A stretch of 64,000 nt of DNA from an uncultured Pseudanabaenaceae cyanobacterium (lineage in GTDB: Bacteria > Cyanobacteriota > Cyanobacteriia > PCC-9006 > JAAUQQ01): contig CALLAT010000009.1 of NCBI GenBank assembly GCA_938002085.1, forward strand, positions 75,450 to 139,449, read 5' to 3'. The notes under the pieces were generated by a model. It did not search any database. It was not told the origin of the DNA and worked only from the letters and a program-made list of their open reading frames with translations. Positions 18,560 through 42,824 of the stretch are shown in pieces. Positions within the stretch are counted from its first letter, which is position 1. Every line of letters begins with the position of its first letter. The translations under genes and the position numbers were made by a program.

Positions 18560-18928
18560 TTATTTTTGAGACACCACTAGAATCACACCGCTGATAATCA
18601 ATCCCAGTCCCACTAAACGCCCTAGGGGAATTGTTTCTTTAAAGACGAAATAGCTTAATAAAACTGAAAACACGTACACCAGCGACACCGATGGTCCTGC
18701 AATGCTCAAAGGCACTCGCGACAGCAACAAAATATAGGCTATGGCGCCCAAGCCATAACAGCCTAAACCGAGCATGAGTTCGGGAATTTTGATGGCCTCA
18801 ACGACCGTCGCGAGGGAGACCTGCTTCAATAAAGGAGCTAGTTTATCAGCCCCCAATTTCAGGAATAACTGTCCTCCCACGCTACTCAAAACAGAAAGCA
18901 ACAGAAAGCACAGTTCGATAGGATTCAT
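18560..18928 (-). CDS. Small 4-TM EamA/SMR-like membrane protein (ArnE/ArnF-like undecaprenyl-phosphate-sugar flippase subunit)
   Basis: 122 aa with four hydrophobic helices. Adjacent to and co-oriented with a GT2 polyprenol-phosphate glycosyltransferase, mirroring arnC-arnE/F and gtrB-gtrA pairs. Confidence 0.6.
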   Translation of the reverse strand: MNPIELCFLLLSVLSSVGGQLFLKLGADKLAPLLKQVSLATVVEAIKIPELMLGLGCYGLGAIAYILLLSRVPLSIAGPSVSLVYVFSVLLSYFVFKETIPLGRLVGLGLIISGVILVVSQK

Positions 18929-19129
18929 TCTTAAAATGCCAGGACATTAGCGGAGGTCAGTTTTCCCATACTCAATCCCATTCAGCACCACCTACCGGCA
19001 ATCAAGCCATAGGAGCAAACAGCTGGGAACCCGCAAAGCAGTGAAAGGTACAAGTCGCGAGAATTTCTGCTTGTCAGTTGGCTCTGCATCTGAACAAAGC
19101 GTGCGAAACTGACGAGCGAGCTTTTAGCG

Positions 19130-19882
19130 TTAGCGGTGCCGGGGGAGCGCAGGCTGGGGCAGCGGAATGGAAATGGTTTTCCAAGGCTTGACCCGAGCGA
19201 ATAAGTTGTACTTTAAGATACAAATAATAGCCCTTACGCCATCGCGCCAGCCAATTTTCTTTCCTTCCTGGTAAGTGCGACCATAATAGGAAATACCCAC
19301 CTCATAAATGCGGCAGCCCATCTTCGCGACCTTGGCGGTTATTTCTGGCTCAAAACCAAAGCGATTTTCTTCAATCTCTACTGCTTGAATCACCTCCCGG
19401 CGGAAGGCTTTGTAGCAGGTTTCCATATCTGTCAAATTGATGTTAGTCATCATGTTAGACAGCATTGTTAAAAAACGATTGCCCAGCATGTGCCAGTAAT
19501 AGACCACCCGATGGGGCTCGCCCCCCATGAATCGCGATCCGAACACCACATCTGCCTTGCCATTCTCAATGGGAGCAATTACGCGGGGAAATTCCTGGGG
19601 GTCATATTCCAAGTCCGCATCTTGAATGATGACAATATCTCCCGTTGCCGCCGCAAAACCACTGCGCAGTGCAGCACCTTTGCCCTGGTTACGGCGATGG
19701 AGAATCGCTTGATCGACTTGATCGCGCAGGGGACCTTGCAACAGCTCCCGCGTTCCATCCGTAGAGCCGTCATCAACAATGATAATTTCGCACTGCTTCA
19801 CTGGTGAAGCTTGAACCGCAGCAATGACGGTTTCGATTGTTTGAACCTCGTTGTAACAAGGAATAACCACCGACAATTTCAT
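19130..19882 (-). CDS. GT2 polyprenol-phosphate glycosyltransferase (DPM1/ArnC/GtrB-like)
   Basis: [12 protein letters not shown]...[12 protein letters not shown]...[11 protein letters not shown] motifs (DxD/DAD) typical of dolichyl/undecaprenyl-phosphate sugar synthases. Start chosen at the internal ATG (MKLS), because the longer ORF adds a non-conserved 27-aa leader. Confidence 0.85.
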
Positions 19883-20227
19883 GCTCTGGGCACTCCCGAA
19901 AATAGATACATTGTCCCCAATTAGTGAAGTAAAACCAGTTCCACTGGCACCGCCTTCACTCAAGTTGTAGCCTCAACCTGATAAATGACTTGAGACTGTG
20001 ATGTTGCTTCAAACCCTACCTCTTTTCTCGCAGCAGTACTAGCGTTTGTTCTCTCGTTGGATGTTCGCTGAACTGTTGTGCAAGCTGGAGACTGTGATGC
20101 CAGGCGCCTCAGCGAGAGTAGACTCCATTATGTTCTGACTATATAGAGGCTCGAGCAGTCAACCAAAATTTAGGCTCTTCTCCATTTAAGGAGATAACAC
20201 CCATAATCTTAAGGCGTACCTAGGGAA

Positions 20228-22537
20228 TTAGTTTTGGCTCCCGTTTTCTGAAAGCTCAACTCTTCGGAGGGCAACGCCAAGCCTCCTATCATCTTCAGAT
20301 AGAGATTGTGATGCCGGCGAAGTTGCATTAGGCACTTCAATTCTCACATTTATATATTGTTGCTTTAGATCATTCTTTGATAATGAGAGTGAATAGTTAC
20401 TAGCCTCACTATTCGTTACGCTGATGGTGCGTACGAGACGGTCATTGAGGTAGAGATAGATATCCTGTGGAGCATCCTCTGAAGCAGCATAGGTGCTCAT
20501 AATAAGCTCTAAATTTGCACTTTTGGCGTGCTCTGAGAAATACCGAGCAGGAAGTAACTGCAAATTTGCGCTAGGCCCAGACCAAACAAATGTTTCATCT
20601 AATCCTTGCCAACCCTGATCCAAAACAGATGCTATCTCCATTCGAGAAGCACAACTTTCTCCGACTTGAATGGCTGTTTCCTTCGAGTTTAAGCCGTCTT
20701 TCTTTTTCTTCGTCTCTCCAGTCGTTTGATGGAGGGTCACAACTGAATACAAGTCCTTCTCAACAACTTGATAGTTTGAGAGATTCCTTAGTGCAGAAAT
20801 AGAAGAACTAAATGCTTGTTTTTGCTTTTCTACATGTAGTTGCTTCTCATCCCAATAATGTGCACCTTTAAGCGTATCCATATAAGTCAATACGACTGCA
20901 TCAGCTGTCTGATTCTGTAAAATCGCTCCGACTCGCTCTGTAAGACATTCTCCTGCCCCCCCAAAAGGAAGTGTTCTCAAGAGATAAGGCCATGTTTCAC
21001 GAGCTTTCTCAAAATTCTTGTCTCCTCCTATGTTATATGTTTGGTATCCTCCCGTAGAAGCAATGTAGTTCACTATAAAATCATTGTAAATAGGTAAAAA
21101 AACGACCTTGTTCTCGGCATTAAAAATTTGGGAAAGGTAAGAGAAGCTAGAATCAACCTCCATTATCTCCTCCCTAAATCGGATTCCTGTCCATATCCTA
21201 GATGTGGGATTAGGGCAATTCCCAGCAATCAGTAAAGAAGTTAGGAATAAGGATATTAACTTATCTTTCCTTGTATGCTTTTCCTCTAACTCAAGAAATA
21301 GCAATACTGTTATGCCAAAAAATCCTGTAAACATTAATCCAGACCAGCGGTATGATGCTCGCATATTGCGAAACCCTGGCAGAGATCTGGATATAAAGGC
21401 ACTGCCAGTGGGGGCGATTGCAGCAGATTCTGGCATCACTCCTCCATCAATAATAGGGAGAGCTGATAGCTCTCCTACACGAATAGAGTTGAATTTTAAG
21501 GAAGGACCTAGCGATAAATAGAAGCCTAAGATCGATATTAAGAGTAAAGGTAGTACGAACTTTGACTTTCGCCCTTTTAAAAGTCCGAACCCACTTACAA
21601 GAATAAGAGGTAGAGAAAAAGTTGTCTGCCAAACGGATGCATCACCAAAAAAAAGTTTACCGCTACGTCGAGTACTGATCTGTAGAAAGTCCCACAATGC
21701 TGCAATGCCCTTAGATGGACGGAATAGCATGACTAAATCTATTCCCCATCCACGAAAAGCATCTATGCTGGATGGATTATAGTGAGTTGTACTCAGATAT
21801 GAGGTGTAGACAACGTAGGCAAACAAAAGTGAAATGCAGGCGATTATAAATATTTTGAATTTATGCTTAAATTCCCATTTTCTATCTATCCAAGCTGCAA
21901 GAAAAGTTAGTAAGAAACCAACTGCATGCATCATAAATGTATAGCCATCCATGAAAATAGATAACATGCTGACTAAACTGAATGTTATGAATCCTTTTAT
22001 GCAGCTAGATGAAAAGGAATTACTTTGAGAGCATTCGTAGACTAAATATAGTGATGCATAAATATAAAGTGGAAGCAGCGCAAAGCCAAATGAAACGTAG
22101 GAGTAACCTGCATGGACCCAAACAATAGGTAATGTCAAATAAATGGGAGCCAATGCAGCGCCCATCTTAAATGTCCCTCCCAGCAACTGGCATAGCTTTA
22201 TCGCTCCAAATAGTGATAAAGCCAACCAAAAAATAGCACATACAGAATAAGCATCTGCCGAGTGCAGGCCTAGAAACTGAATTAAGAAGCTTTGAAGGAT
22301 AGTGCTTGGTAGACCCAGAGGGATAGGTGCGGGGATTGGAATACCAAAATTAGTGGCTTTAATTGCAAAACCACCTACATTCGCAAAAGATTCTGCAAAT
22401 CCAGAAGCCCACAAAATTTGGCCTAGTGTAGGAATTGAGATACCAGGAATAGCTCCATAGACAATGACAATAATCGTCAAAGATAGGAAATAGCTAAAGC
22501 CAGAACTCTTGAGTAGTAAATTTTTCTTATCGCTCAT
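20228..22537 (-). CDS. Large polytopic membrane protein (~12+ TM in N-terminal 450 aa plus ~300-aa soluble C-domain), putative GT-C-type glycosyltransferase/polymerase
   Basis: 769 aa. Extremely hydrophobic N-terminal half with multiple Pro/Gly-containing helices. Sits in a low-GC block next to the GT2 polyprenol-P sugar synthase and small flippase. No family assigned with certainty. Confidence 0.5.
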   Translation of the reverse strand: MSDKKNLLLKSSGFSYFLSLTIIVIVYGAIPGISIPTLGQILWASGFAESFANVGGFAIKATNFGIPIPAPIPLGLPSTILQSFLIQFLGLHSADAYSVCAIFWLALSLFGAIKLCQLLGGTFKMGAALAPIYLTLPIVWVHAGYSYVSFGFALLPLYIYASLYLVYECSQSNSFSSSCIKGFITFSLVSMLSIFMDGYTFMMHAVGFLLTFLAAWIDRKWEFKHKFKIFIIACISLLFAYVVYTSYLSTTHYNPSSIDAFRGWGIDLVMLFRPSKGIAALWDFLQISTRRSGKLFFGDASVWQTTFSLPLILVSGFGLLKGRKSKFVLPLLLISILGFYLSLGPSLKFNSIRVGELSALPIIDGGVMPESAAIAPTGSAFISRSLPGFRNMRASYRWSGLMFTGFFGITVLLFLELEEKHTRKDKLISLFLTSLLIAGNCPNPTSRIWTGIRFREEIMEVDSSFSYLSQIFNAENKVVFLPIYNDFIVNYIASTGGYQTYNIGGDKNFEKARETWPYLLRTLPFGGAGECLTERVGAILQNQTADAVVLTYMDTLKGAHYWDEKQLHVEKQKQAFSSSISALRNLSNYQVVEKDLYSVVTLHQTTGETKKKKDGLNSKETAIQVGESCASRMEIASVLDQGWQGLDETFVWSGPSANLQLLPARYFSEHAKSANLELIMSTYAASEDAPQDIYLYLNDRLVRTISVTNSEASNYSLSLSKNDLKQQYINVRIEVPNATSPASQSLSEDDRRLGVALRRVELSENGSQN

Positions 22538-22782
22538 CTAGGATAGGCTCTCTTTTTAGATTCTTTTTTAAGTCAAGCTTGATCAGCATATTCACTTCGA
22601 AGGGAAAGACGAGAAATGCAGATATGCCGATCTTTTAGAAGTTGAAATAGGTTAAAAATTTAGTCGGATAAAATATTTCTTCGTGTATTTTTTTACATAA
22701 TAAAGGTTGGTTTATACTCTAGCTCTCCCTTAAAAAATCTCTTGTAATACCGACGCAGACCTTTGTAAGCATACCGAGATAA

Positions 22783-23775
22783 TTAGCTTCGTTTATACAA
22801 TAAAGATGTCCAGCCTAAGCCTGCATATATTCCAGACATTGCTAAGACAAAAGCATGCATACTCACACCTGCAATCAGAACTTTCTCAGGGTCTAGGCCA
22901 AGTAAAGAGAATCCCATCACCCATCCAGCCTCAAGCGTTCCGACACTACCTAAAGTATTAATGGGTAGGAGTTGTGTCAGACTAGCCAGGCTCGATCCAA
23001 CAATAACCTCTTGCCATGAGACGACTAAGCCTGCAGCACTCAGAAAGAGATTAAATAAACTGAGAAGAGACACCCAAATCAATCCTGAACACATAAATAG
23101 TTGAAAATGCAGTCTTATATCCTTGTATAGGCGTAACTCTTGATAGACCTGGGCTATCAGCTTAGATACCTTTCTAACTAAACGATGAATAGAAGTAGAG
23201 AATATATTCCTCTGACGACGTTTGGCAGTCACTCGCAAATGGAGACTATCTCTATATTTGATGTAGAGGAAGTACAAGATAGAGAATGCCATGAGAGCTA
23301 AAGCGACTTGCCCAACTAAAATCCATGAGATACTTGGCACTTGAAAATTGACTTGAAGCTGCTGACTGAGCTTCCATATACCAACAAGGACACAGCATAA
23401 TAGAAGTAGTGCATCATACAATCTAGCAATAATTAAGCAGGCGAGAGATGACGAGTATTTTGATTTTCCATACTTCTCTAGTAGGAATGGGAAGCTCATC
23501 TCTCCACTGCGCATAGGCAATATGTGGTTGAGGAATTGGTGGATGCATGTCACTCGCAACACCGTAAAAGGATGTGGATTTCCTTGAGTGGAGAGTAAGA
23601 TCTGAAATCGAGTTGCTCTAACCGACTGATTAAAAAAAACTAAGAAGGCAACTAGAAATATATTCTCTAAACTAAAGCTAGTGATGGCTGACTTAAAGCT
23701 TTCTACATCAACTACGACTATTAAAATGACGCAGAGTAGAAGAGTAAAAAAACTAATTCCGAGAAATTGCTTCAC
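22783..23775 (-). CDS. Polytopic membrane protein, lysylphosphatidylglycerol-synthase-TM/flippase-like domain family
   Basis: 330 aa, about 8 TM segments. Composition and layout resemble the flippase-like (LPG_synthase_TM) proteins that accompany GT2 enzymes. Low-GC coding sequence. Confidence 0.45.
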   Translation of the reverse strand: MKQFLGISFFTLLLCVILIVVVDVESFKSAITSFSLENIFLVAFLVFFNQSVRATRFQILLSTQGNPHPFTVLRVTCIHQFLNHILPMRSGEMSFPFLLEKYGKSKYSSSLACLIIARLYDALLLLCCVLVGIWKLSQQLQVNFQVPSISWILVGQVALALMAFSILYFLYIKYRDSLHLRVTAKRRQRNIFSTSIHRLVRKVSKLIAQVYQELRLYKDIRLHFQLFMCSGLIWVSLLSLFNLFLSAAGLVVSWQEVIVGSSLASLTQLLPINTLGSVGTLEAGWVMGFSLLGLDPEKVLIAGVSMHAFVLAMSGIYAGLGWTSLLYKRS

Positions 23776-23867: not shown

Positions 23868-24503
23868 TTACTTAGCACGTAAGAGTAGTACCGTCCAAGG
23901 CAGTGGAGAAGCTACGGCCAAAATGTCAAACTTCTGACTGACAAGATTGATAAATCCTCGCTTTGACCAATGCTGTAGATGAGCAGGGCAGTTACCCCAG
24001 GAGGTTATATAGGCACCTCTGGCGAAGTTCATTGCCCTAAAAATAGGCTCCCTTGGCACACTGAGCAGGGCATAAGGTTTGGCTGCGGTATGCAAATTGT
24101 TGAGTCCTTGAATAGGATCCTCTAAATGCTCTAGCACTTCACAACAAACAACCATTTCAGCTTCTTTAGAGTCGTGCGAAAGGGTGTATATGCTTTGCTT
24201 CTTAAAAACAACTCGCTTGGAGTCTACATTTTGCTTGGCTTCTTGAATAATGGCGTCAGAGATATCTAATGCTTCGATTTCTGCAGAAGAATTCTGCAAA
24301 ATAATCTGGGTGATATGTCCTTCTCCACAGCCAACCTCTAACACATCAGTCGGCTGAATCTCTCTGATGAAGGATGCAATGGTTTTGTCAAAATTACTAA
24401 GGAGTAAACGCCCAATTGGGTTGCGAGTTTTATACTTGACTCCAGAGCCAACTACCACACTACCTTCAAATTTGAATGGGCTCTTTTTATAAGTGCTGCT
24501 CAT
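23868..24503 (-). CDS. Class I SAM-dependent methyltransferase
   Basis: 211 aa. Motif I VLEVGCGEGHIT, motif post-I EALDISD, acidic motif II CCEVLEHL. Confidence 0.75.
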   Translation of the reverse strand: MSSTYKKSPFKFEGSVVVGSGVKYKTRNPIGRLLLSNFDKTIASFIREIQPTDVLEVGCGEGHITQIILQNSSAEIEALDISDAIIQEAKQNVDSKRVVFKKQSIYTLSHDSKEAEMVVCCEVLEHLEDPIQGLNNLHTAAKPYALLSVPREPIFRAMNFARGAYITSWGNCPAHLQHWSKRGFINLVSQKFDILAVASPLPWTVLLLRAK

Positions 24504-24569: not shown

Positions 24570-25193
24570 CTAGCTATTCCTAGAGGCAGAAACGGGAATA
24601 TTTCCCTTTATTTTTCCGGCCTCAATAGATGACGTCGTAAATTCTGGAGACAGGACAACCATTTGATTCGCACCCAGCAAAAAGCGCCTATAGATAAGAA
24701 TTGGGCAGTCCGCAATTTGGGCTATACGCTGTAAAGATGACCTGTCCAACAGCATTTCATGCTCTTCGCTCGCATGGGCACTGAATAACCCCAGCTTTGC
24801 CCCGACATCATGGACCCATTCCAGGCTTGGGTGGGGGGTTGTTAAGACGATCCGACTCTGGCGATTAGGTTGAAGATAGCGGCATAGGTTTTTCAGAAAT
24901 AGATCGGGTTGAGGCACATGCTCAATAACTGCTAAAGAAACGACTGTATCGAAACTTGTTGGTTTTGGCATTTCCATTTGGAATTTATGCCTGGGGAATC
25001 GATGTCGAGCAATGTTGATTGATTCCTCATCATAGTCAACACCAAAATAAAGCTCGGGATCGACTAATGCTGCAAGAGAACCAGCACCACAGCCAATATC
25101 TAAAATGCGACCTCGTAGAAATGGGCTAATTGCTTTGATACGGCATTCTCTTAAGAAAGGAGACAACAAACCTTCGGCACCTTGATCAGCCAT
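24570..25193 (-). CDS. Class I SAM-dependent methyltransferase
   Basis: 207 aa. ILDIGCGAGSLAALV motif I, VDYDEESI, LAVIEHVPQP. Confidence 0.75.
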   Translation of the reverse strand: MADQGAEGLLSPFLRECRIKAISPFLRGRILDIGCGAGSLAALVDPELYFGVDYDEESINIARHRFPRHKFQMEMPKPTSFDTVVSLAVIEHVPQPDLFLKNLCRYLQPNRQSRIVLTTPHPSLEWVHDVGAKLGLFSAHASEEHEMLLDRSSLQRIAQIADCPILIYRRFLLGANQMVVLSPEFTTSSIEAGKIKGNIPVSASRNS

Positions 25194-25248: not shown

Positions 25249-26331
25249 TTACAGCTTATGGCTCAATATTGACAGGGTGGCTTCCCCAGTATTCTTCCAG
25301 CTAAAGCGGCTTGCTTGAGCAAGGCCTTGAGTCGCTAGCTGCCTACATAATGCTGCATCCTTTAGTAAGGATTTCATCGCTTGTTCTAGAGCCAGTTGAT
25401 CGGTTAAATCAACCTGTAGTGCTGCCTCTCCCGTTACTTCTGATAGCGCACCTGCATGGCTTGTAATCACTGGTGTCCCACAGGCTAAAGCTTCTAAGAC
25501 TGGCAAGCCAAAGCCTTCCCATGCACTTGGAAAGACAAAGGCGATCGCCTGATTAATCAATCGAGGCAAATCAGCATATGGCACATAGCCCAGGAATTTA
25601 ACTTGCTCTACGACTCCCAGCTCCTTTGCCTGGGCCTTGAGTTTGGGGGTGAAGCGAGGATCTGCAACACCCGCGATCCAGAGCTCACAATCTGAGGATT
25701 TGGGTAATTTGGCAAAGGCGGCGATCGCTTTGTCGATGCCTTTGTAGGGGTCATGGCGACCGATGTAGAGGAAGTAGTTTTTTCGAGGCAGGTCTAAGGG
25801 GTTGAAATGGTCCGCATCGTAGGCCAAGGGAATCGGTGTGATCTTGGATGCAGCTATATTGCCAAAGCGCATGACATCATCTGCTGTGGATTGGGAGTTG
25901 CAGATGATGTGCACGGCTTGGTTCAGAACTTGGGGAACGATGAAACGAAAGTAATTGGTGAGTGGCGATCGCCAGCGGGGAAACCGTAGAGGAATAAAAT
26001 CATGGACCATGACGACGGTGCGGCAGCCTCTCCAAAGTGGCATCTCCGGCACAGGTGAAAAGATGAGTGAGGATTGGTGAGACTTGTAATGGCGAGGAAG
26101 TTCCGTTTGGTTCCACAAGAGGCGGCGAGCATGGCCTTTGGAACCCTGCTCAGGCGTTAGATTGGCCTGGATGGTTTGGGTTTGAAAATTGGGGAAACGC
26201 TGGGGCTGGGCGGTGAGGAGGGTGGGATCGAGTGCTGCAAGATGGGGGACGACGTTCAGGGCATAGGTGCTGATGCCGGTGGGTCGTTCCATCAGCATTG
26301 CTAAGTTGATGAGTAGCCCTGAATCAGTCAT
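25249..26331 (-). CDS. GT4 (GT-B fold) glycosyltransferase
   Basis: 360 aa. C-terminal FVFPSAWEGFGLPVLEALACGTPVITS (E-x7-E motif region) typical of group 1 glycosyltransferases. Confidence 0.85.
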   Translation of the reverse strand: MTDSGLLINLAMLMERPTGISTYALNVVPHLAALDPTLLTAQPQRFPNFQTQTIQANLTPEQGSKGHARRLLWNQTELPRHYKSHQSSLIFSPVPEMPLWRGCRTVVMVHDFIPLRFPRWRSPLTNYFRFIVPQVLNQAVHIICNSQSTADDVMRFGNIAASKITPIPLAYDADHFNPLDLPRKNYFLYIGRHDPYKGIDKAIAAFAKLPKSSDCELWIAGVADPRFTPKLKAQAKELGVVEQVKFLGYVPYADLPRLINQAIAFVFPSAWEGFGLPVLEALACGTPVITSHAGALSEVTGEAALQVDLTDQLALEQAMKSLLKDAALCRQLATQGLAQASRFSWKNTGEATLSILSHKL

Positions 26332-29413: not shown

Positions 29414-29423
29414 TGTGGCCAAG

Positions 29424-31812: not shown

Positions 31813-32048
31813 TGGAATAAGTACTAAAGTATTGGTGAGAGAAAGCAAAAGACAACTGCATTTTGCCTGCGGTCAAGGCTTCCCCTGACAACTCAGGATC
31901 AGATTATATGGCTTCAATGTCCAATGATTTAAGTCATTTCAACCTGGATCAATCTTCCTAAATTGTATGCCGTTTCCTTTCAGTGCCTCTGACTCAAACA
32001 TTATGCTTTCCTAGGGGCATGTGGAGGTTGGACGGCAATCGGTTTTCC

Positions 32049-33218: not shown

Positions 33219-34216
33219 TCAATTTCACCTTCAGGACAGCTTCGATATAGGAAAGCAGGTTTCTTTTGCCCGCCTGGGGAAACATTAACTGCTTTCACAA
33301 AAATATATTGTCCAAGATCCTGCTCTCGATGCTTCAATAATTCAGAGTAAATAGGTAGATTTACATCTGCATCGACAGCATTAGCATGAACATCTGCTGT
33401 AAACATTGCCGAAATCTCAAACCCTAAATAAGTTAGTAAAAGGTGAAGCTCGTGCTTGTTGTACTCGCGATTATGCCGACCATAGGGGCCATATCCAGAA
33501 TACGGATCATAGATATTTGTGCCTGATACCATACGCGAAACATTCTCTAGCCGACTCACGTTGGGTGTCGTGAGAATTAGAGTCCCTCCTGGCTTGAGAA
33601 CTCTTTTAATTTTCCGAATGACAGCAGCAGGATCCATCAACAGATGTTCGATGATTTCGCAGCATAATACGAGGTCAAACTGTTCAGATTCGAACGGGAA
33701 AGGCTCTTCTTCAATATTAAAATGGTGAGATGTCAATTCGAGCCGTTGAGGTTCTCCTGCCTCTACAAATGTGACTGCTTGCTTGATCAGTGATTCACAA
33801 TGAGGACCGAAGTAGTTCCCAAATTCTAGATCGAGGTCTGTAAAGCGTTTCAGCAGCATCGTCGTGAAATAAGGGTTCGCACCGAGTTCCAATGCTGTCC
33901 CATTGATGCCTTGAGCCAATCCCCAAGTATAGACAAAACGCCTGAAGTCTTGGCGACAGTAACCTGCCATTTCTTCTTTTGGAGCATCCTCTGGACAAAC
34001 GGACTCCAAAAAACTGAAGAGTTCTTCCTCTGTTAAATTCCCAGGTAGAGGTAAGCCAGGACGTAATGGGAAAAGAGCGTCAGCATTCAGCTTCTCTGGA
34101 CTATTAGAGTTAGCACTGCTTGAATCCTCAAGCGGCTTCTGTTCGGCTGAAAGTGTTGTGTTTAACTTTCGAACTGCTCTTTGGAAATAATTCATGATGT
34201 CCCACTGATAAAGCAA
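33215..34216 (-). CDS. Class I SAM-dependent methyltransferase
   Basis: 333 aa. LELGANPY motif I-like, FDLVLCCEIIEHL, LKPGGTLILTTPN. Confidence 0.7.
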   Translation of the reverse strand: MLYQWDIMNYFQRAVRKLNTTLSAEQKPLEDSSSANSNSPEKLNADALFPLRPGLPLPGNLTEEELFSFLESVCPEDAPKEEMAGYCRQDFRRFVYTWGLAQGINGTALELGANPYFTTMLLKRFTDLDLEFGNYFGPHCESLIKQAVTFVEAGEPQRLELTSHHFNIEEEPFPFESEQFDLVLCCEIIEHLLMDPAAVIRKIKRVLKPGGTLILTTPNVSRLENVSRMVSGTNIYDPYSGYGPYGRHNREYNKHELHLLLTYLGFEISAMFTADVHANAVDADVNLPIYSELLKHREQDLGQYIFVKAVNVSPGGQKKPAFLYRSCPEGEIE

Positions 34217-34234: not shown

Positions 34235-36676
34235 TCAAGTTGTGATGCGCTCTACTAGCTCATCAAGTTTATACCGAACCTGCGCGAGAAGAAATCTTTC
34301 ACGCTGGTCATGCTGAGCTTCAATGACTTGCGATCGCAACTTATTATCCTTGACCATCAAGTGTGCAAGGGCTGCAACGCTAAGCAAATCCTGTTTATGC
34401 TCAAACAAGACCCCCCCATGGCCCAGGGTTTCAGGGACCGCACTGCTCTTATAGGCTAAGACGGGAATATCGAACCACATAGACTCCACTAAGGGGACTC
34501 CAAATCCTTCATGCTCACTCATCGACCAAAATAAGTGAGCTGTTCGATAGCAGGCTAAAAGCTCGGCTTCTTCTACATGTCCTGTAAATAGAACATTGGG
34601 GCGAATGCCCAGCTCAATCATCCATTCAAACAATTCATCGTAAAAAGGATCCTCCTCTCTATATCTACCTACGAGTACGAGGCGAGCTTCGGGATCGAAC
34701 TTAAGATATAAAGCAAATGCTTTGAGGAGATCATCCTGGCATTTGTTCGGTGCAACCCTGCCAACGAACAGAATATTGCTTCTACCGTCTTGAAGTTTTT
34801 CCATCCAAGCCGGATCTGGCTTCATATCCCATTTCCGGGGATTGACAATGATAGGTAAAACATCAGAGCCTAAGAAACCTGACTCAATCAACTCGTCAGA
34901 ATTGTATTGAGAATCGCCTACCGTGATAGAAAAATGGCTAGAGAGTTGAGCTAAATCACGACGCCCTTCCTCTAAAATTAATGCAAAGTTAGGATCATAC
35001 TTCTCAAAGAAATGAGCCGGTGTGATGTTGTGATAGATTAAGCACTTTTTGGATGGATGGCTCACTGCATAAGCTGTTAAATCTGAACCAATTGAATGGT
35101 GATATATCAGACAGGCATTCTTTGAAAAAGATTCAGCAGAAAAGACGTGAGCCTCATGGGTCAACCGTTCATCTAAAAATAAGACATAAATGTCAGAGTG
35201 GTAGCCTCGTTGACGTAAATAATCCCGAATGGCTAATGCTTGATTTGAGATAGCATCTCCATAAGCAAAGCCAGGCAGGAGTTGGTGGATCTCAACCTTC
35301 TTGGATCGCTTTGCCGAGGATTCTGGCTGCGGCCCCTGTGCCAGCATTGCTTGTACTCTTTGAAGAATAGAGCCCCTGACTATTCCTGACGAAGCTTTGC
35401 CTGTTAACGGCTTGTGTTGAGATAACCCTTCTGAAGCCCCACTTTCAGACTCTGCCGGTGATATACCCAGGGCTTTTTCATAACGTCCCAGAACCTTTTC
35501 CCAGTCTGCATTCTCCGCTGCATACTCTTGGCCTCGACGGCCATAGGCGACGCATTCTGCTTCTGCCACATGATCGATGTGCTCAAACTGCTCCGCCCAC
35601 TCTGCTTCCGTTCCAGCCAGCCAGCCTCCTTGAGAGTTCTTGACTGCTAAAGCTGTGGCCAGACAATCCCGATGGACAACGACTGGACGCTGGTAGAACC
35701 AAGCTTCCATCATGACGCGAGAGTAGCTTTCATTTTTGCTCGGCTGAAATAAGGCTAAGCAGCGAGATAGAAGAGCTTCTTTCTCTGACTCACTAACGAG
35801 CTCTAAATCAATAATGTCTGGGGTATTCCCTTCTATCTGAGGGAGTACTCCAGGTCCTGCTAGAACAAGCTTCAAATCAGACTCTGGATGCGCTCTCCTA
35901 TATTCAGAGAAGGCACGCATCAGCAAATCGGTGTTTTTAGTACTGTCTCGTCGTCCTAAGCAAAGAATGAAACGCGATGTTGTGGTCTCGAAGCCCTTTA
36001 CTTCTGCTAAATTCGAGTCAAAGTGCAGCCCAGCTTCTATTCCTGCTCCAGTGGTGAAGCTCTTTAAAGTAATACCTGGTCCATACAGTTGTCTTGCAAG
36101 TTGTGCTTCACCGTCACTAATAAATAGTAATCCTTTCGCAGCATGGAAAATGTCAGAGACATGGGGCAAATAGGCGTAGGACTCGTCATGCAAGCAAGGC
36201 TGTAAAAAAGCACGTTGCTTGACTAAAGAAAGTCCTTGAAGAATCGGGCCATATAAGTAGGGTAAAAATAAGAATGCATCATAGGCTTCTGAATTCTTTT
36301 TTAGGTACTTAAGAAGTTTTGGAGAATTGATGTTCTCAGATACAAAATAATTTGAAAACTCAGGAGATACAGGAGAGACACCCGGCTTTAAGTCAGCCTT
36401 AGGGGTTTGCATTAATTGAGCATTAGCAGCATTAAACTGTGAGTCATTTCGAGCCATCACAGCAAATCGGCGAACCTTTAGATGCCCCTGCTGACTGACG
36501 CCAGGCTTGACATGATTTTGCGACCAATCCTTTTGGAAGGTTTCGCAGCAAGTCGTTAAGACTTCTACCTCATGCCCTCTCGCTGCTAAACGGTTAGAGA
36601 CTTGCCAGCCATGTTGCTCTGCACCTCCTTTCAAAGATTCACCAAACCAAGGAATAACGATCGCAATTCTACTCAT
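34235..36676 (-). CDS. Tandem two-module GT4 glycosyltransferase (WbdA-like serotype-specific polymerising mannosyl/glycosyltransferase architecture)
   Basis: 813 aa with two successive GT-B units. GGAE N-terminal motif, a mid-protein EAWFYQRPVVV motif, and a second unit ending MSEHEGFGVPLVESMWFDIPVLAYKS. Confidence 0.8.
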   Translation of the reverse strand: MSRIAIVIPWFGESLKGGAEQHGWQVSNRLAARGHEVEVLTTCCETFQKDWSQNHVKPGVSQQGHLKVRRFAVMARNDSQFNAANAQLMQTPKADLKPGVSPVSPEFSNYFVSENINSPKLLKYLKKNSEAYDAFLFLPYLYGPILQGLSLVKQRAFLQPCLHDESYAYLPHVSDIFHAAKGLLFISDGEAQLARQLYGPGITLKSFTTGAGIEAGLHFDSNLAEVKGFETTTSRFILCLGRRDSTKNTDLLMRAFSEYRRAHPESDLKLVLAGPGVLPQIEGNTPDIIDLELVSESEKEALLSRCLALFQPSKNESYSRVMMEAWFYQRPVVVHRDCLATALAVKNSQGGWLAGTEAEWAEQFEHIDHVAEAECVAYGRRGQEYAAENADWEKVLGRYEKALGISPAESESGASEGLSQHKPLTGKASSGIVRGSILQRVQAMLAQGPQPESSAKRSKKVEIHQLLPGFAYGDAISNQALAIRDYLRQRGYHSDIYVLFLDERLTHEAHVFSAESFSKNACLIYHHSIGSDLTAYAVSHPSKKCLIYHNITPAHFFEKYDPNFALILEEGRRDLAQLSSHFSITVGDSQYNSDELIESGFLGSDVLPIIVNPRKWDMKPDPAWMEKLQDGRSNILFVGRVAPNKCQDDLLKAFALYLKFDPEARLVLVGRYREEDPFYDELFEWMIELGIRPNVLFTGHVEEAELLACYRTAHLFWSMSEHEGFGVPLVESMWFDIPVLAYKSSAVPETLGHGGVLFEHKQDLLSVAALAHLMVKDNKLRSQVIEAQHDQRERFLLAQVRYKLDELVERITT

Positions 36677-38406
36677 GCCTTATACCCCACTACTGCATAG
36701 TCTTGTGGGCCGTAAAGTAATTCTCCTAGGCGTTGATCTAATTCATTCTCTTCCCTTAACCAAGTGGGCTTCGGAGATTGATTTAAATTCAATATTTGAA
36801 CATTGACGAATCCTCGTGACTCCAGCAGAAATGCCATCATCGGGCTGGGTAGAGGATTCCGGTGGGTCGGATCTAGATAAAATGAACAACTTCCCACGAG
36901 CAAGTTTGCTGGGTTAGGTGTCTCAAAAATAGTTATTCCCCCTGGCTTTAATGCCTTCAGCGAATAATCGAGACACTTAATCAATGCTGGGAATGGAAGG
37001 TGCTCAACCAAATGAAACCCCATGATGCCTCCTAGAGTAGATTCTTCTACAGAAGATAGATAATCAATGGCATCTGATTCAATGACAGTTAATGAACGGG
37101 CTCTACATTGGGCTAAGAAGGCATGATTAATATCCACACCAGTGACAGATTTGTAATTGTGCTGGCTTAAAAGTTCTAGCCATTCTCCTCTTCCACATCC
37201 TAGGTCTATAACGGTATCTTGCTCTGTAGATAAATTAGATTGTTCAAGAATGGGCAAATAAACTTTTAGACGCTCTAGAACGTCCTCGCGTTTTCCTCGA
37301 AACTTTTCTTCAAAAGCAGAATAGAAAGCATCTAAGTGATGCTCTGCTACATGTTCTACTTCCTCTAGAACTTCCGAATCTTTTCGAGAAGAAGGGGAAA
37401 CCAACTGCTTTAGTAAAATCGTTAACTGCTGTTGCTGATGAGCCAAGGATTGCTTGCAGTAGCTGAGATCTTGAATATGCCGCTCTGACGTTGTAGTGAG
37501 CAGGTGACTCGCTTCATTCTGACTGTTTCTTAAGCCCTGAAATATCTGTTCTCGAGTACTGCTTGTTTCAGAGAGTTCAAACAATTTGGCTTCTAAAACT
37601 TCTATTCGCGTTAAACCCGCCTGTTCAGCCTCCAAAGCAAGATGTAGCCGTTGGCCAATCGCCAGGAGATGCTGCTCGACTTGAGCTAGCTTACTTTCCC
37701 CAGCCTCTACTCTGGCTAGTGATGTTTGCTCACCTTCCAAAGACAGATTTAGCCGTTGACCAATTGCTAAAAGGTTCTCTTCTACGCCTACCGTTCGTTG
37801 TATAAGAGCATTGAGTGAGCTTTCAATAGCTTGTTCCTTTTCGCTCAAGGCTTTTTGTTTTGCATCAATGGCTTGTTCTTTTTTGTCTAAAGCTTGCTTG
37901 TATGAATTCGAAGCTCGCTGGGTCTCTGATATGTGACTTTCGAGTTGCCAAAGGCGCTCTTCTATTTCTTTAAGTTGCAGCGATGCTGTCTCAAACTGAA
38001 GCGATTGTTCATCTAGCTCATTGCCTAAACCAACCTTTTCAAGTTGATCATCCTTGAGTAGTCTAAGCAGCTCCTTTAAGGCAATGACAAAGTCTGAATT
38101 TATAACGGTTTGCTTCTTGAAGAGAAACCGAAAACATCGTATTACAAAATCTTGGAGCTTCAGGCTTAGAGAGAAGGGAAAGCGAGAAAACTTTGCTGGC
38201 CATTGCAGAGAGGCCTGGGACTGAAACCTAGCATCATCTACGACGGCTTCAATGCGTTCTAGCCTGTCTAAGTGTTTTCTATATTCCCGTTTCGATTTCT
38301 CGACTGCTGGCACTTGCTCCTGAAGTTTGTTGCAACGCTCAACTTCGAGACGGACCTGTTCCATCAGCTCGTGAACGTCAATTTTAGGATTATTAGAATC
38401 AATCAC
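36673..38406 (-). CDS. Coiled-coil / SAM-methyltransferase fusion protein (WbdD-like chain-terminating methyltransferase candidate, inverted domain order)
   Basis: 577 aa. N-terminal ~350 aa predicted coiled coil with heptad-like repeats LEGEQTSLARVEAGESKLAQVEQHLLAIGQRLHLALEAEQAGLTRIEVLEAKL. C-terminal MT domain with VIDLGCGRGEWLELL, GFHLVEHL, LKPGGITIFETPN. Confidence 0.7.
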   Translation of the reverse strand: MIDSNNPKIDVHELMEQVRLEVERCNKLQEQVPAVEKSKREYRKHLDRLERIEAVVDDARFQSQASLQWPAKFSRFPFSLSLKLQDFVIRCFRFLFKKQTVINSDFVIALKELLRLLKDDQLEKVGLGNELDEQSLQFETASLQLKEIEERLWQLESHISETQRASNSYKQALDKKEQAIDAKQKALSEKEQAIESSLNALIQRTVGVEENLLAIGQRLNLSLEGEQTSLARVEAGESKLAQVEQHLLAIGQRLHLALEAEQAGLTRIEVLEAKLFELSETSSTREQIFQGLRNSQNEASHLLTTTSERHIQDLSYCKQSLAHQQQQLTILLKQLVSPSSRKDSEVLEEVEHVAEHHLDAFYSAFEEKFRGKREDVLERLKVYLPILEQSNLSTEQDTVIDLGCGRGEWLELLSQHNYKSVTGVDINHAFLAQCRARSLTVIESDAIDYLSSVEESTLGGIMGFHLVEHLPFPALIKCLDYSLKALKPGGITIFETPNPANLLVGSCSFYLDPTHRNPLPSPMMAFLLESRGFVNVQILNLNQSPKPTWLREENELDQRLGELLYGPQDYAVVGYKA

Positions 38407-38461
38407 CTGAAATCTAAACCTTGAGTCTACAAAATTAACAACTTTAGAACCGATGAAGCCG

Positions 38462-39847
38462 TCACAATATTCGAGCTTTTCGCTTCTCTACTTGAAATAG
38501 CCCATGAACAAACTCCGGAGCGACTGCTTGAATAGAGACTGCATTTTGAATCCAGTCCAGCATTTCTAGGTTCTCGTGAGAGCCATCTCCAAATGCAATA
38601 TCTAAAGCATAGGTGCCTGTCGCAAGATAAGGCCACGAAAATTCAAGTTCGATCTTGGATGTTCCTGTCGGAGAAACCTCAACCCATTGCTGGGAAAAGT
38701 GGTGATCGAGTAGATCGGTACTCCAACCAGACAATACGGTTCTGAGGCGGTCTAAGAGAGCGATACCCACATGGGGATGTTTGATCGCGCTATGGCGGGT
38801 GACCGTTACCTCCACAATGACCACTTTCCCTGGCTCTGCAAAGGGTAAAGGGACCCGATCTGAGTCCAAAACTCTGACAGATAGTACTTCTCCTCGACCC
38901 GATCCAAAACGCTCGCATTCTTTAAGAGCTTGAAATTCTGCGTTGGTAAATAGGTTGATGCCGCTGCGTGTTAATGCATCAACTTCTATGTCTCCTTTCT
39001 GTGTGACTTCCACAGGTGGGGGAGGAGTTTCTACTTCGGAGGAGGGGACTTCACTCGGTAAAACATTATTTTCGATTTCTTCCGGTTGCGACTGATATTG
39101 CTGATTAACTCTTTGATATACCCAGGCTTGGTAATGCTTACAGATATCTGCAGGCAAACCCTGTTCAACAATCTTGCCTCCATTAATCCAAATAGCCTTG
39201 GAACAGAGTCGAGAGACTGAACCCACATCATGGGACACAAACAGGATTGTCCCCCCTGCGGCTTGGAAGTCTTTGATTTTGGCCATGCAACGGTGGACAA
39301 AAATTCCATCTCCGACAGCCAGAGCCTCATCCACAATTAAAATTTCAGGCTCAACATTGATGGCTACGGCAAAGGCAAGGCGGACAAACATACCGCTGGA
39401 ATATGTTTTGACCGGCTCATCCATAAAGTCCCCAATCTCAGCAAATGCTGCAATACGCTCAAATTTTTGAGCAATATCCTCCCGCGCGAGGCCCAGAATC
39501 TGGCCATTAAAGAAGACATTTTGGCGGCCCGTAAACTCAGGGTTAAAGCCACTACCGAGTTCGAGCAATGCCGCAACACGACCTGATGTTTTGACCTGAC
39601 CTTGGGTGGGGGTTAGGGTTCCTGCAATGATTTGCAGGAGTGTGCTTTTACCTGAGCCATTTTGGCCAATGATTCCTAAGGTTTCTCCCCGAGCAACGCT
39701 CAAGTTGATGTCGCGAAGCGCCCAAAACTCTTCCGCTCGATTTTTGCCGGGTAATAGAATCTCCTTTAAACGGTCTGTGGGATGGGAATAGCGCTTATAT
39801 CCCTTAGACACATCAGAGACTTCAATCGCATAGGTTTGTTCAGACAT
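38462..39847 (-). CDS. wzt: O-antigen/polysaccharide ABC transporter ATP-binding protein Wzt with C-terminal carbohydrate-binding extension
   Basis: 461 aa. NBD with GQNGSGKSTLL, LSGGM-like signature SSGMFVRLAFAVA, Walker B ILIVDEALAVGD. An extra ~190-aa C-terminal beta-rich domain follows, as in Wzt of E. coli O8/O9a. Confidence 0.85.
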   Translation of the reverse strand: MSEQTYAIEVSDVSKGYKRYSHPTDRLKEILLPGKNRAEEFWALRDINLSVARGETLGIIGQNGSGKSTLLQIIAGTLTPTQGQVKTSGRVAALLELGSGFNPEFTGRQNVFFNGQILGLAREDIAQKFERIAAFAEIGDFMDEPVKTYSSGMFVRLAFAVAINVEPEILIVDEALAVGDGIFVHRCMAKIKDFQAAGGTILFVSHDVGSVSRLCSKAIWINGGKIVEQGLPADICKHYQAWVYQRVNQQYQSQPEEIENNVLPSEVPSSEVETPPPPVEVTQKGDIEVDALTRSGINLFTNAEFQALKECERFGSGRGEVLSVRVLDSDRVPLPFAEPGKVVIVEVTVTRHSAIKHPHVGIALLDRLRTVLSGWSTDLLDHHFSQQWVEVSPTGTSKIELEFSWPYLATGTYALDIAFGDGSHENLEMLDWIQNAVSIQAVAPEFVHGLFQVEKRKARIL

Positions 39848-39885
39848 GACGATATCGCTTTACGGTTGATGGCTAAACAAACAAG

Positions 39886-40758
39886 CTAGAGAACGTCTGC
39901 AAAAGCAGGAGTGAGCTTTCGATAAATGAATCGTCCCAAGAGAAAGACAACTAAGCTAATGATGAATAGGCTGAAACCATAGGTCTCCAGGGTCTCAGTA
40001 CTTCCCCAAAAGACAAGATCACGGTATAACGCCGTAATGGTGGCCAAGGGATTGAACATCATGACCCAATGCTCAAAGCTGCCAAGCTTCTCGGGTCCAT
40101 ATACAACAGGGGTTAAATAGAAAAGTAGGTTTAAGATAATGCCGACACTTTGGGCAATGTCGCGAATAAATACAGTCAAACCGGCCACGATATAACAAAG
40201 GCCAGCTGTCAGCATCATTTGCATTCCCCAAACTAATGGCAGTAATGCGAGTTGCCAAGGCAGACTGTGGGTGAGGAAGGCTAGCAATACGATCAGTACG
40301 GCTAACCCAAACGCACTTTCAATTAAGGCGGAGAAAACGGGAACTAGCGGTAGCAAGCTTAGGGGGAAAACCACCTTCTTGACGAGGTTCACCTGTCCCA
40401 CTACGGCATTAGATGCCTGGGTGACGCTGGTGGAAAAAGCAATCCAAGGTACGAGGGCGGCGAAGAGCCATAGACCAAATAGGAGAGTGCTATCGGGGTC
40501 AAAGCCGCGAGAGGCCAACATCATGGCTTGGGGACTTTGACCCTGAACCGGAAGCTTGACCCGCAAAACGATTGAAAACACATAGGTGTAAATCAATAGT
40601 TGAGAAATCTGGTTAAGTAAGGGCCAGAGATTTCCGAGCATGGAGCCCTTGTAGCGGGCCTCTAGATCTCGGCGAACCAGCATTTGCAATAGGCTGAACT
40701 TGGATAAACGCTCAAGTTTTGAAAATAGCCATTGTTTTAGGGGAAGCTTAAGGCGCAT
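39886..40758 (-). CDS. wzm: ABC-2 type polysaccharide export permease Wzm
   Basis: 290 aa, 6 TM helices, ABC-2 family organisation. Immediately upstream of wzt. Confidence 0.8.
   Translation of the reverse strand: MRLKLPLKQWLFSKLERLSKFSLLQMLVRRDLEARYKGSMLGNLWPLLNQISQLLIYTYVFSIVLRVKLPVQGQSPQAMMLASRGFDPDSTLLFGLWLFAALVPWIAFSTSVTQASNAVVGQVNLVKKVVFPLSLLPLVPVFSALIESAFGLAVLIVLLAFLTHSLPWQLALLPLVWGMQMMLTAGLCYIVAGLTVFIRDIAQSVGIILNLLFYLTPVVYGPEKLGSFEHWVMMFNPLATITALYRDLVFWGSTETLETYGFSLFIISLVVFLLGRFIYRKLTPAFADVL

Positions 40759-40892: not shown

Positions 40893-42824
<1,932 letters not shown>

Follow-up and report, generated by a model that had tools for sequence, protein, structure and literature searches.

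Within a 64,000-nucleotide stretch of the contig CALLAT010000009.1 from an uncultured Pseudanabaenaceae cyanobacterium (hereinafter the window; positions 75,450 to 139,449 of the contig), we describe a 22-kb cluster of genes for a surface sugar polymer, probably methyl-capped, located at positions 18560-40758 of the window. It is likely that this cluster constitutes one surface-glycan locus of the polymerase-terminator type, dependent on a transporter of the ATP-binding cassette (ABC) type, whose product would most likely be the O-polysaccharide (O-PS) of lipopolysaccharide (LPS), and that it combines a conserved backbone with two horizontally exchanged cassettes. The strategy is known from Escherichia coli, Klebsiella, and Aquifex, and the cluster is a fairly ordinary example of it; as such, it extends a known strategy into an under-studied phylum and does not overturn the current understanding. 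Most worthy of attention are its terminator of inverted polarity, the swap of cassettes between it and the equivalent locus of a sister strain, and an unclassified glycosyltransferase (GT) cassette of the GT-C type.

The cluster itself is real. The open reading frame (ORF) listing places 17 consecutive genes on the minus strand between 18560 and 40758, with intergenic distances of -86 to 264 bp, and a scan of the gaps found no extra ORF of at least 40 amino acids between them; 17 same-strand genes with a single functional theme are far beyond chance. In the order of transcription these are wzm, wzt, ccMT, GT4x2, MT333, GT4_389, gmd, GT4_460, GT2_362, ABC_PglK, GT4_360, MT207, MT211, LPGsynTM, memb769, GT2_277, and an ArnE/F-like gene. 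The domain identities come from Pfam and NCBIfam searches of all 17 ORFs. They confirm each of the gene classes named in an original prediction made on this DNA, namely, wzm, wzt, a tandem GT4, further GT4 and GT2 enzymes, gmd, four methyltransferases, a second exporter, and a polyprenol-phosphate-sugar module. That prediction also had the coordinates, strand, and gene content of the cluster right; its count of twenty co-oriented genes is to be lowered to 17, which is about what its own itemised list adds up to.

The transporter and the putative chain terminator

The first two genes encode the transporter. Wzm (39886..40758; 290 amino acids) is an ABC-2 permease with multiple hydrophobic segments (Pfam ABC2_membrane, PF01061, E = 1.7e-16, residues 24-248), the orthologues of which, 54-58% identical, are encoded upstream of wzt in cyanobacterial loci. 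The exporter ATPase Wzt (38462..39847; 461 amino acids) joins a nucleotide-binding domain (NBD; residues 1 to about 260; ABC_tran, E = 3.3e-24) to a C-terminal carbohydrate-binding domain (CBD; about 300-461; Wzt_C, PF14524, E = 1.7e-22, residues 311-452). The terminal pair is thus of the ABC-2/Wzt kind, and the predicted binding domain is present at the C-terminus of Wzt. Among solved structures, the NBD finds the Aquifex aeolicus Wzt as its top match (1.5e-76), followed by TarH/TagH, and it is 48% identical to the Wzt of E. coli O9 over residues 7-256.

A profile built from 25 Wzt C-domains linked to members of the ccMT family likewise has the A. aeolicus CBD as its best match (2e-35). The solved CBDs that it reached are 8dku/6o14, 5hno, and 2r5o, with values of 1e-10 for the Raoultella CBD, a reader of a 3-deoxy-D-manno-octulosonic acid (Kdo) cap, and of 2e-8 for the E. 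coli O9a CBD, a reader of a methyl-phosphate cap. What the Aquifex CBD binds is 3-O-methyl-mannose, and it is consistent with 3-O-methyl-rhamnose; both cap the D-Rha/D-Man polymer (PMC9445017). The residue aligned with its methyl-stacking Trp362 is at least 90% conserved in the CBD alignment; in the window Wzt the conserved Trp lies in an LDWIQN motif. At the level of sequence, it is therefore plausible that the window Wzt reads a methyl-type cap, and a methyl cap without phosphate would fit a candidate terminator in which a methyltransferase but no kinase is seen. The ccMT-linked transporters show three or more CBD subtypes, and that of the window recurs in four Nostocales/Chroococcidiopsis loci and in the sister strain. 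The Aquifex comparison extends to gmd, which is close to the A. aeolicus GMD, and is confined to the transporter and gmd; the published account of that system names neither glycosyltransferases nor a terminator (PMC9445017). In many cyanobacterial loci (L023, L026, L029, L049, L002, L004, and L006) the Wzt match is limited to the NBD, with about 2.5 kb between it and the ccMT gene, which reflects either a Wzt with a very different and larger C-terminal region or an inserted extra gene.

The candidate terminator, ccMT (36673..38406; 577 amino acids), consists of a conserved N-terminal region (about 1-110), a tract of long helices (about 104-336), and a C-terminal class I methyltransferase dependent on S-adenosylmethionine (SAM; about 356-577, with Pfam methyltransferase domains at 393-537). 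In the AlphaFold2 model, the helices span residues 104-173, 183-278, and 282-336, about 230 residues in all, and the methyltransferase domain has a predicted local distance difference test (pLDDT) score near 90. The central region has few Pro and Gly residues and is rich in E, K, Q, and L. No transmembrane segment was found in the protein, and a cationic amphipathic helix at 80-97 (hydrophobic moment 0.56, net charge +3) falls in the most conserved N-terminal stretch. The GTG start that yields 577 amino acids can be accepted because the homologue alignments include the conserved N-terminus MI(D/E)xNNPxI(D/N)V; a 563-amino-acid version in the protein collection probably stems from a later start call.

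The family has more than 4000 homologues in the protein collection, many of them named 'O-antigen chain-terminating methyltransferase' by the Joint Genome Institute, so that public data already label the family as one of chain terminators. Their lengths of 382-771 amino acids vary mainly in the central region, and some match the tropomyosin or myosin-tail families of Pfam. Across the 80 loci surveyed below, the N-terminal region is detected almost only in cyanobacteria, and the members from other phyla match in the methyltransferase part alone. In Nostoc homologues (e.g., P0033, P0050, P0031, and P0067) the helical region is made of near-perfect tandem repeats of about 14 residues, e.g., DERLVNMDSRVQGI (alignment A1, columns ~200-400), and the number of copies differs among them, which makes for an easily expandable spacer. 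The window protein, unlike some of these, has no strong repeat expansion; it has a single internal duplication of about 42 residues (LLAIGQRL...), and at the DNA level its putative coiled-coil region contains just a weak 20-bp repeat in 2.9 copies at 37823-37883. A further variation is seen in members of about 750-770 amino acids (P0028, P0034, and P0044), which additionally have sulfotransferase domains (PF13469 and PF00685), suggesting terminators that add sulfate besides methyl.

The placing of a terminating enzyme at the distal end of a coiled coil is the principle of a molecular ruler, and coiled-coil terminators together with CBD-bearing Wzt proteins are widespread, with cyanobacterial examples noted (PMC11231755). 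The modelled architecture of ccMT may represent such a ruler, with a C-terminal catalytic domain and hence a polarity contrary to that of WbdD, WbbB, and the Klebsiella O4/O7 terminators. In WbdD the methyltransferase is N-terminal, with a kinase added in O9a, and the coiled coil and the region that binds the membrane and WbdA come after it, at the C-terminus; in ccMT this order is reversed and the kinase domain is missing. The similarity to WbdD of E. coli HS O9 in BLASTP (24% over 152 amino acids, E = 4e-4) covers the SAM core only. Accordingly, we rejected an orthology of ccMT and WbdD; by analogy, ccMT may function like WbdD without belonging to its family. The Klebsiella O12 WbbB and O7 ORF6 proteins (PMC11231755) are fusions of a coiled-coil terminator with a polymerase, and a 1562-amino-acid protein of the sister strain is a fusion of this kind. 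In the Klebsiella proteins, however, the terminator is N-terminal, whereas the methyltransferase is C-terminal both in ccMT and in the sister-strain fusion, and the catalysis of termination differs as well, being that of a Kdo transferase in O12 and of a methyltransferase-kinase in O7.

An alternative to a ruler is that the polymer has no terminal cap at all, the four methyltransferases of the cluster decorating internal residues and chain length depending, as it does in CBD-independent systems, on how polymerisation and export are balanced. The methyltransferase domains are indeed generic, with activities that cannot be assigned from sequence, and the WbdD-like methyltransferases of the Pseudomonas aeruginosa common polysaccharide antigen (CPA) did not act as chain-length regulators (PMC3560663). 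Those enzymes, however, are without membrane- and GT-interaction domains (PMC3560663) and without an extended helical region such as ccMT bears, a feature that marks terminators (PMC11231755). Given further that a CBD on Wzt is a feature of cap-dependent transporters and that ccMT is tightly syntenic with wzt, we regard an uncapped polymer as very improbable.

The putative polymerase cassette, the backbone, and the variable locus

Downstream of ccMT, GT4x2 (34235..36676; 813 amino acids) is the candidate polymerase. It has two GT4 modules of the GT-B fold, as predicted, with matches to Glycos_transf_1 and Glyco_trans_1_4 in two stretches each, an N-terminal Glyco_transf_4 match, and NCBIfam matches at 233-397 and 607-811. 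Its orthologues, 53-57% identical at 99% coverage, directly follow ccMT in 10 loci. The same cassette includes the SAM methyltransferase MT333 (33215..34216; Methyltransf_11/23; called as 326 amino acids on the identical contig, L001), whose orthologues, 62-70% identical, lie between GT4x2 and GT4_389 in six loci (L023, L026, L029, L042, L043, and L049). GT4_389 (32049..33218; Glycos_transf_1, 4.4e-13) is the single-module GT4 of this variable cassette, and its orthologues, 54-59% identical, are syntenic with GT4x2.

The order of wzm, wzt, a terminator methyltransferase, a multi-module GT4, and single GT4s is that of E. coli O8/O9/O9a (Klebsiella O5/O3), as judged against E. coli HS O9. The likeness extends to the Wzt_C domain on Wzt, to a methyltransferase joined to a long helical spacer, and to the proposed logic of polymerising, capping, reading the cap, and exporting. 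The O8/O9a-like logic that had been predicted for the cluster therefore finds support as a plausible mechanism, on the strength of gene order, the long-helix methyltransferase, Wzt_C, and synteny, and the comparison with the O9 cluster holds for gene order and for the NBD of Wzt. As a statement of homology to WbdA and WbdD, it is not supported. GT4x2 aligns with WbdA in BLASTP at 25% over 242 amino acids, with the C-module of the query placed on the N-module of WbdA, and the other high-scoring segments are marginal; we rejected GT4x2 as a WbdA orthologue since non-corresponding modules are joined, and the term 'WbdA-like' reduces to a generic GT4 resemblance. The CBDs of E. coli O9 and of the window Wzt are not alignable pairwise, and unlike E. 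coli O8/O9a the window has gmd in place of manB/manC, along with a PglK-like exporter and a periplasmic GT-C module. The original prediction was correct on the type of system and on its probable logic, and wrong in implying a relatedness to WbdA and WbdD or a polymannose product.

The conserved backbone starts with gmd (30835..31848), which encodes a GDP-mannose 4,6-dehydratase matched over its full length by GDP_Man_Dehyd (7.5e-123), with 390.8 bits against TIGR01472, the curated cut-off of which is 415. Of the solved structures, the P. aeruginosa GMD (1rpn, 1.7e-104) is nearest to it, together with the A. aeolicus GMD (2z1m), and solved GMDs in general match at 1e-92 to 1e-104. The protein is 73-77% identical in many related cyanobacterial loci and 91% identical in the sister strain. 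Because gmd is full-length and conserved in the related loci, a 6-deoxyhexose component of the D-rhamnose or fucose type can be argued for the polymer. A comparable polymer is the P. aeruginosa CPA, a D-rhamnan made by gmd/rmd, wzm/wzt, the GT4s WbpX/Y/Z, and PA5455-5459. The window shares with it the GT4s, Wzm/Wzt, and the presence of several methyltransferases, and O-methyl 6-deoxyhexoses have been reported in CPA (PMC3560663).

The remaining backbone genes before the second exporter are GT4_460 (29424..30806; Glycos_transf_1, 3.1e-34; 79% identical in the sister strain) and GT2_362 (28421..29509; Glycos_transf_2, 1.6e-26; 87% identical in the sister strain), the true start of which is probably near 29413, judging by its sister-strain homologue of 329 amino acids. 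After the exporter come GT4_360 (25249..26331; Glycos_transf_1, 3.3e-37, and Glyco_transf_4, 4.1e-14; 75% identical in the sister strain and 54-56% in Nostocales) and the small SAM methyltransferase MT207 (24570..25193; Methyltransf_23, 2.3e-16), relatives of which, at 28-29% identity, occupy the equivalent position in L085, L010, and L035. GT4_460 aligns to its Nostocales orthologues in two pieces (about 43% and 42% of its length), separated by a stretch rich in Gly, Ala, Ser, and Pro (about 195-275); the sister-strain orthologue aligns over the full length, and the insertion seems to be lineage-specific.

The sugars bear on the literal version of the O8/O9a comparison, according to which the 813- and 577-amino-acid proteins would be the counterparts of WbdA and WbdD and the product a methyl-capped mannan. 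This version would accommodate the gene order of E. coli O9 and the pairing of a dual GT4 protein with a methyltransferase having long helices; GT4 enzymes are, moreover, typical users of GDP-mannose. It is nonetheless highly unlikely in view of the non-corresponding modules aligned between GT4x2 and WbdA and of the reversed order and lacking kinase of ccMT relative to WbdD. The conserved gmd points instead to a 6-deoxyhexose, as in the D-rhamnose-containing polymers of P. aeruginosa and A. aeolicus. In addition, neither manB nor manC was found among the cluster genes and the 20 larger flanking ORFs of the 64-kb window that were scanned with Pfam, a scan that left out a few flanking ORFs of at least 150 amino acids. 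A polymannose-type system is thus doubtful, and a pure polymannose is, given gmd, an unlikely reading of the sequence.

A scan of species-representative genomes for members of the ccMT family returned 80 loci, 33 of them cyanobacterial, and these place the window cluster in a wider setting. A Wzt-type NBD is encoded within 10 kb of the ccMT member in 49 of the 80 loci and in 29 of the 33 cyanobacterial ones, nearly always upstream and on the same strand. The series wzm-wzt-ccMT-GT4x2-(MT333)-GT4_389 keeps its order, with identities of 53-70%, in genomes of Nostoc, Rivularia, Chroococcidiopsis, Calothrix, Coleofasciculus, and Leptolyngbyaceae; Calothrix PCC 7103/7716 and Chroococcidiopsis FACHB-1243 are strains with this core. 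The gmd-GT4_460-GT4_360 and GT2_277...ArnE/F blocks recur in Nostocales loci.

The clearest view of how the locus changes comes from the sister strain, represented by L085, a 38.5-kb contig (ENA ERZ6864290) that was reached via a protein 92% identical to the PglK-like exporter (L085:1-18261 compared with window 18560-39847). Its chromosomal site is the same, because the flanking histidine-kinase and tetratricopeptide repeat (TPR) genes are 78-85% identical in DNA. The backbone (gmd, GT4_460, GT2_362, the exporter, GT4_360, GT2_277, and the ArnE/F-like gene) is kept at 75-92% amino acid identity. In place of ccMT, GT4x2, MT333, and GT4_389, the sister strain has a single 1562-amino-acid protein with GT4, GT2, and GT4 modules, a stretch rich in Q, E, and L (coiled coil), and an unrelated C-terminal methyltransferase, followed by a Methyltransf_24 gene. 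Likewise, a 541-amino-acid protein without a family match stands in place of MT211, LPGsynTM, and memb769; an acyltransferase gene (Acyl_transf_3) is added; and the Wzt CBDs of the two strains are 42% identical. The replaced segments are exactly those of low GC content in the window: their values are 0.40-0.48, whereas the backbone has 0.52-0.53 and the flanks have 0.53-0.57. Because the sister strain bears different polymerase/terminator and GT-C cassettes at the same site, this is, as far as sequence comparison goes, a serotype-like variable locus, with exchangeable polymerase/terminator/CBD and side-chain cassettes.

The putative periplasmic cassette and the second exporter

The side-chain cassette proper comprises three genes. 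MT211 (23868..24503) encodes a SAM methyltransferase (Methyltransf_12/23). LPGsynTM (22783..23775) encodes a 330-amino-acid polytopic membrane protein with seven hydrophobic segments and the flippase-like domain of MprF (LPG_synthase_TM, 8.9e-31), a candidate flippase for a lipid-linked donor. The third, memb769 (20228..22537; GC 0.40), matched no Pfam or NCBIfam family. Its AlphaFold2 model (pLDDT 87, predicted template-modelling score 0.81) has the fold of a GT-C glycosyltransferase with a C-terminal beta-sandwich like that of a carbohydrate-binding module (CBM): the top 11 PDB matches in Foldseek are all GT-C, at E-values of 7e-7 to 5e-5, and the named ones include AftA (8if8, 7e-7), AglB (3wak), DPY19 (7zli), ArnT (5f15), and AftD (6wby), with the C-terminus resembling CBM35/36/6. 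Of its 409 homologues the closest is about 42% identical, and those with a name come mainly from outside the cyanobacteria (including Serratia, Vibrio cholerae, Rhizobium, Burkholderia, and Desulfallas), with one from a cyanobacterial metagenome-assembled genome (MAG).

This cassette adjoins two backbone genes that complete a module of the polyprenol-phosphate-sugar type, as had been predicted. GT2_277 (19130..19963; Glycos_transf_2, 6.9e-36; called as 250 amino acids, i.e., 19130-19882, on the identical contig L084) is a polyprenyl-phosphate glycosyltransferase of the ArnC/AglJ/DPM-like kind, with NCBIfam matches, all below the equivalog cut-offs, to AglJ (4.2e-35), ArnC (4.6e-24), and a dolichyl-phosphate hexose transferase (5.9e-22). 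The ArnE/F-like transporter (18560..18928; 122 amino acids, about four transmembrane segments) is a candidate polyprenyl-phosphate-sugar flippase (NCBIfam ArnF, 1.6e-10, and ArnE, 1.1e-9, below cut-off; EamA, 7.3e-8) and is 61-68% identical in Nostocales loci, where homologues of GT2_277, 77-80% identical, adjoin it.

Comparison of window positions 20228-24503 with L087:3478-8286, L089:4168-8259, and L090:4378-9372 shows that, in Serratia, a Pseudomonadota MAG, and Desulfallas, a GT-C homologue is grouped with a GT2 and with a methyltransferase of 214 amino acids that shares 44-45% identity with MT211. The place that LPGsynTM has in the window is occupied in Serratia and Desulfallas by a membrane protein of about 300 amino acids with a weak LPG_synthase_TM match, which was not called in the Pseudomonadota MAG. 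Because relatives of MT211 accompany GT-C homologues in other phyla, MT211 is assigned to this cassette and not to backbone synthesis, and the relationships among these sequences identify MT211-LPGsynTM-memb769 as a cassette mobile across phyla. The Serratia version sits amid housekeeping genes, outside any O-antigen cluster. Three-component systems of periplasmic glycosylation (GtrA/B/C; Citrobacter youngae GT136; ArnC/E/F/T) share with the window a GT2 polyprenyl-phosphate glycosyltransferase and a small transporter of the small multidrug resistance or ArnE/F-like kind, and such glycosylation also acts on O-PS made by ABC-transporter pathways (PMC11127046). GT136/ORF12, as described there, is a GT-C enzyme with an extra CBM-like domain, as in the memb769 model. 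Unlike the Gtr and Arn systems, the window cassette adds a dedicated methyltransferase and an LPG_synthase_TM-type protein, and its GT-C enzyme falls outside the Pfam and NCBIfam families.

The second exporter, ABC_PglK (26382..28184), is a 600-amino-acid protein with fused transmembrane and nucleotide-binding domains (ABC_membrane and ABC_tran). The prediction of an MsbA-like exporter is borne out at the level of this general architecture, with bit scores far below the cut-offs of all three NCBIfam equivalogs, PglK (314 against 1000), MsbA (283 against 602), and HepA (276 against 725). It is 92% identical in the sister strain, and no orthologue of it was found in the other 80 ccMT loci. Its 16 metagenomic relatives, at 35-48% identity, have unrelated neighbours in glycan or LPS-core-like contexts; one adjoins gmd, an fcl-like gene, and GT9 and radical-SAM genes. 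Perhaps the exporter acts as a flippase for a lipid-linked intermediate; alternatively, it could serve a second pathway.

A second pathway would be part of a different view of the cluster, in which two or three glycan systems, each independent of the others, are mere neighbours: a Wzm/Wzt polymer (~32-41 kb), a pathway of the PglK/MsbA-like exporter with its own glycosyltransferases, e.g., for a lipid-linked oligosaccharide or as a lipid A-core flippase (~25-32 kb), and the periplasmic cassette with another target (18.5-24.5 kb). Two different exporters are present, and the steps in GC content coincide with the block borders. Gaps of 200-264 bp occur at 31849-32048, 28185-28420, 22538-22782, and 19964-20227. 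The main support comes from the PglK-like exporter, which among these loci is restricted to the window and the sister strain and whose 41-48% identical metagenomic relatives are found in clusters lacking wzm/wzt; the occurrence of the GT-C cassette outside O-PS clusters in Serratia and the Pseudomonadota MAG points the same way. Such a partition is nevertheless unlikely. The 17 genes are co-oriented and uninterrupted, the sister strain, at the site that it shares with the window, has its genes between wzt and the ArnE/F-like one in the same general order, and in Nostocales gmd-GT4_460-GT4_360 and GT2_277/ArnE/F directly follow wzm-wzt-ccMT with no second exporter. Because the Nostocales loci join both parts in this way, the backbone belongs to the Wzm/Wzt system. 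What had been read as one cluster of a single type is most likely one Wzm/Wzt system, built as a mosaic of a backbone and swappable cassettes and not as a uniform unit.

The proposed pathway, its product, and the flanking genes

For a single Wzm/Wzt locus, the following pathway can be proposed. An enzyme whose gene lies outside the window would start synthesis on undecaprenyl phosphate, and gmd, GT4_460, GT2_362, and GT4_360 would supply a GDP-6-deoxyhexose precursor and build a primer or adaptor. GT4x2 with GT4_389 would polymerise the repeat domain in the cytoplasm, and MT333 would probably methylate internal residues. Anchored at the membrane or at the polymerase through its N-terminal region with the amphipathic helix, ccMT would hold its methyltransferase at the far end of its roughly 230-residue helical spacer. 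As WbdD and WbbB suggest by analogy, it could methylate the non-reducing end of a sufficiently long chain, stopping elongation and setting a modal length. The C-terminal CBD of Wzt would then recognise the cap, and Wzm/Wzt would export the lipid-linked polymer. In the periplasm, GT2_277 may make a polyprenyl-phosphate sugar, to be flipped by the ArnE/F-like protein, the LPG_synthase_TM protein, or both, and transferred by memb769 as a side chain, with MT211 acting as a part of this GT-C cassette.

Several observations weigh against this reading. The helical region of ccMT is modelled at low confidence in the AlphaFold2 monomer (pLDDT ~50-67), and the nearest structure to its generic class I methyltransferase fold is 3dli, an uncharacterised Archaeoglobus protein; neither its PDB sequence matches, taken up to an E-value of 0.01, nor its first 50 Foldseek matches include WbdD. 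On the side of the transporter, the window Wzt C-domain by itself matched no solved CBD in a phmmer search of the PDB, and of the four positions that form the methyl pocket in Aquifex, its subtype has two changed (L300 to A and T346 to D). The gaps of 200-264 bp noted above might divide transcription units, and the PglK-like exporter has no place in the canonical Wzm/Wzt model. The Pfam scan that found no manB/manC in the cluster and the 20 flanking ORFs also found no gene for a GDP-4-keto-6-deoxymannose reductase of the rmd/fcl type, the partner of gmd that is present as rmd in P. aeruginosa CPA. The P. aeruginosa GMD is reported to have some reductase activity of its own, which might excuse the missing gene. 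Among the same 20 flanking ORFs, the scan returned neither an initiating phosphoglycosyltransferase of the WecA/WbaP type nor a WaaL O-antigen ligase.

Since no waaL or initiating transferase is seen in the scanned ORFs, an LPS O-antigen can be proposed from the window as no more than the most likely product. The same mechanism could serve a released or capsular exopolysaccharide (EPS) or a glycan for the S-layer or another protein. Apart from the missing ligase, this is suggested by Synechocystis mutants in Wzm/Wzt-type genes, in which EPS was changed rather than the O-antigen (PMC4390846), and by the use of Wzm in S-layer glycan transport too (PMC4594306). We hold such a product to be somewhat unlikely, though a serious contender. 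In Synechococcus elongatus a Wzm/Wzt route makes O-antigen and has been suggested to be predominant for cyanobacterial LPS (PMC4390846; PMC4594306), the NBD and CBD of the window Wzt are closest to those of bona fide O-antigen transporters, and no KpsE/KpsD or Wza-type outer-membrane export genes were found in the Pfam-scanned ORFs of the window. The O-antigen model of S. elongatus PCC 7942 is also a cyanobacterial, ABC-transporter-dependent surface glycan, and the likeness to it is one of description, not of sequence. Its published description mentions neither a coiled-coil terminator nor cap recognition, and a literature search joining S. elongatus and WbdD gave no match.

The surface glycans of cyanobacteria govern susceptibility to grazing and phages, flocculation, and biofilm behaviour, and their biosynthesis is poorly characterised experimentally (PMC4390846). 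The locus offers a complete and interpretable set of parts for a capped polymer of controlled length, and the sister-strain swap of the polymerase/terminator and GT-C cassettes at one site amounts to a natural experiment. More tentatively, and with somewhat less than even confidence in the three taken together, we propose a class of polarity-inverted ruler terminators, a serotype switch at a fixed site, and a new GT-C family in the MT211-LPG_synthase_TM-GT-C cassette. The first may be a large and experimentally untouched class, with an anchor to the membrane or the polymerase at the N-terminus, a coiled coil built of repeats and variable in length, and the methyltransferase at the C-terminus, and could allow the ruler idea to be tested on a protein of opposite polarity to the characterised terminators. 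Through the second, sister strains may exchange cassettes in which polymerase, terminator, and CBD are matched, and the third may add a side-chain sugar, possibly methylated, and move between phyla.

The cluster is bordered at one end by a convergent PAS histidine kinase gene (16048-18489, plus strand) and at its upstream end by glmS (40893-42824, minus strand), beyond which lies psaC (43011-43358, minus strand); because of psaC in this flank, the host can be identified as a cyanobacterium. The wider flanks are of a housekeeping kind by the Pfam scan, with dnaK/dnaJ, a peroxiredoxin, an M48 peptidase, a DevBCA-like ABC set, a TPR protein, fabF, transketolase, and aspS, among others. The ABC set is a tripartite efflux system 5 kb from the cluster (9933-13280, minus strand), consisting of an HlyD-type adaptor (11886-13280), an FtsX-type permease (10732-11889), and an ABC ATPase (9933-10643), all on the minus strand, like the cyanobacterial DevBCA arrangement. 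Also among the housekeeping genes are one for a YhcG/DUF1016 PDDEXK nuclease and three ORFs of 232-400 amino acids without a Pfam match at E <= 1e-4; the positions listed for these are 50616-51689, 48976-50178, and 55833-56582 on the minus strand and 13813-14511 on the plus strand.

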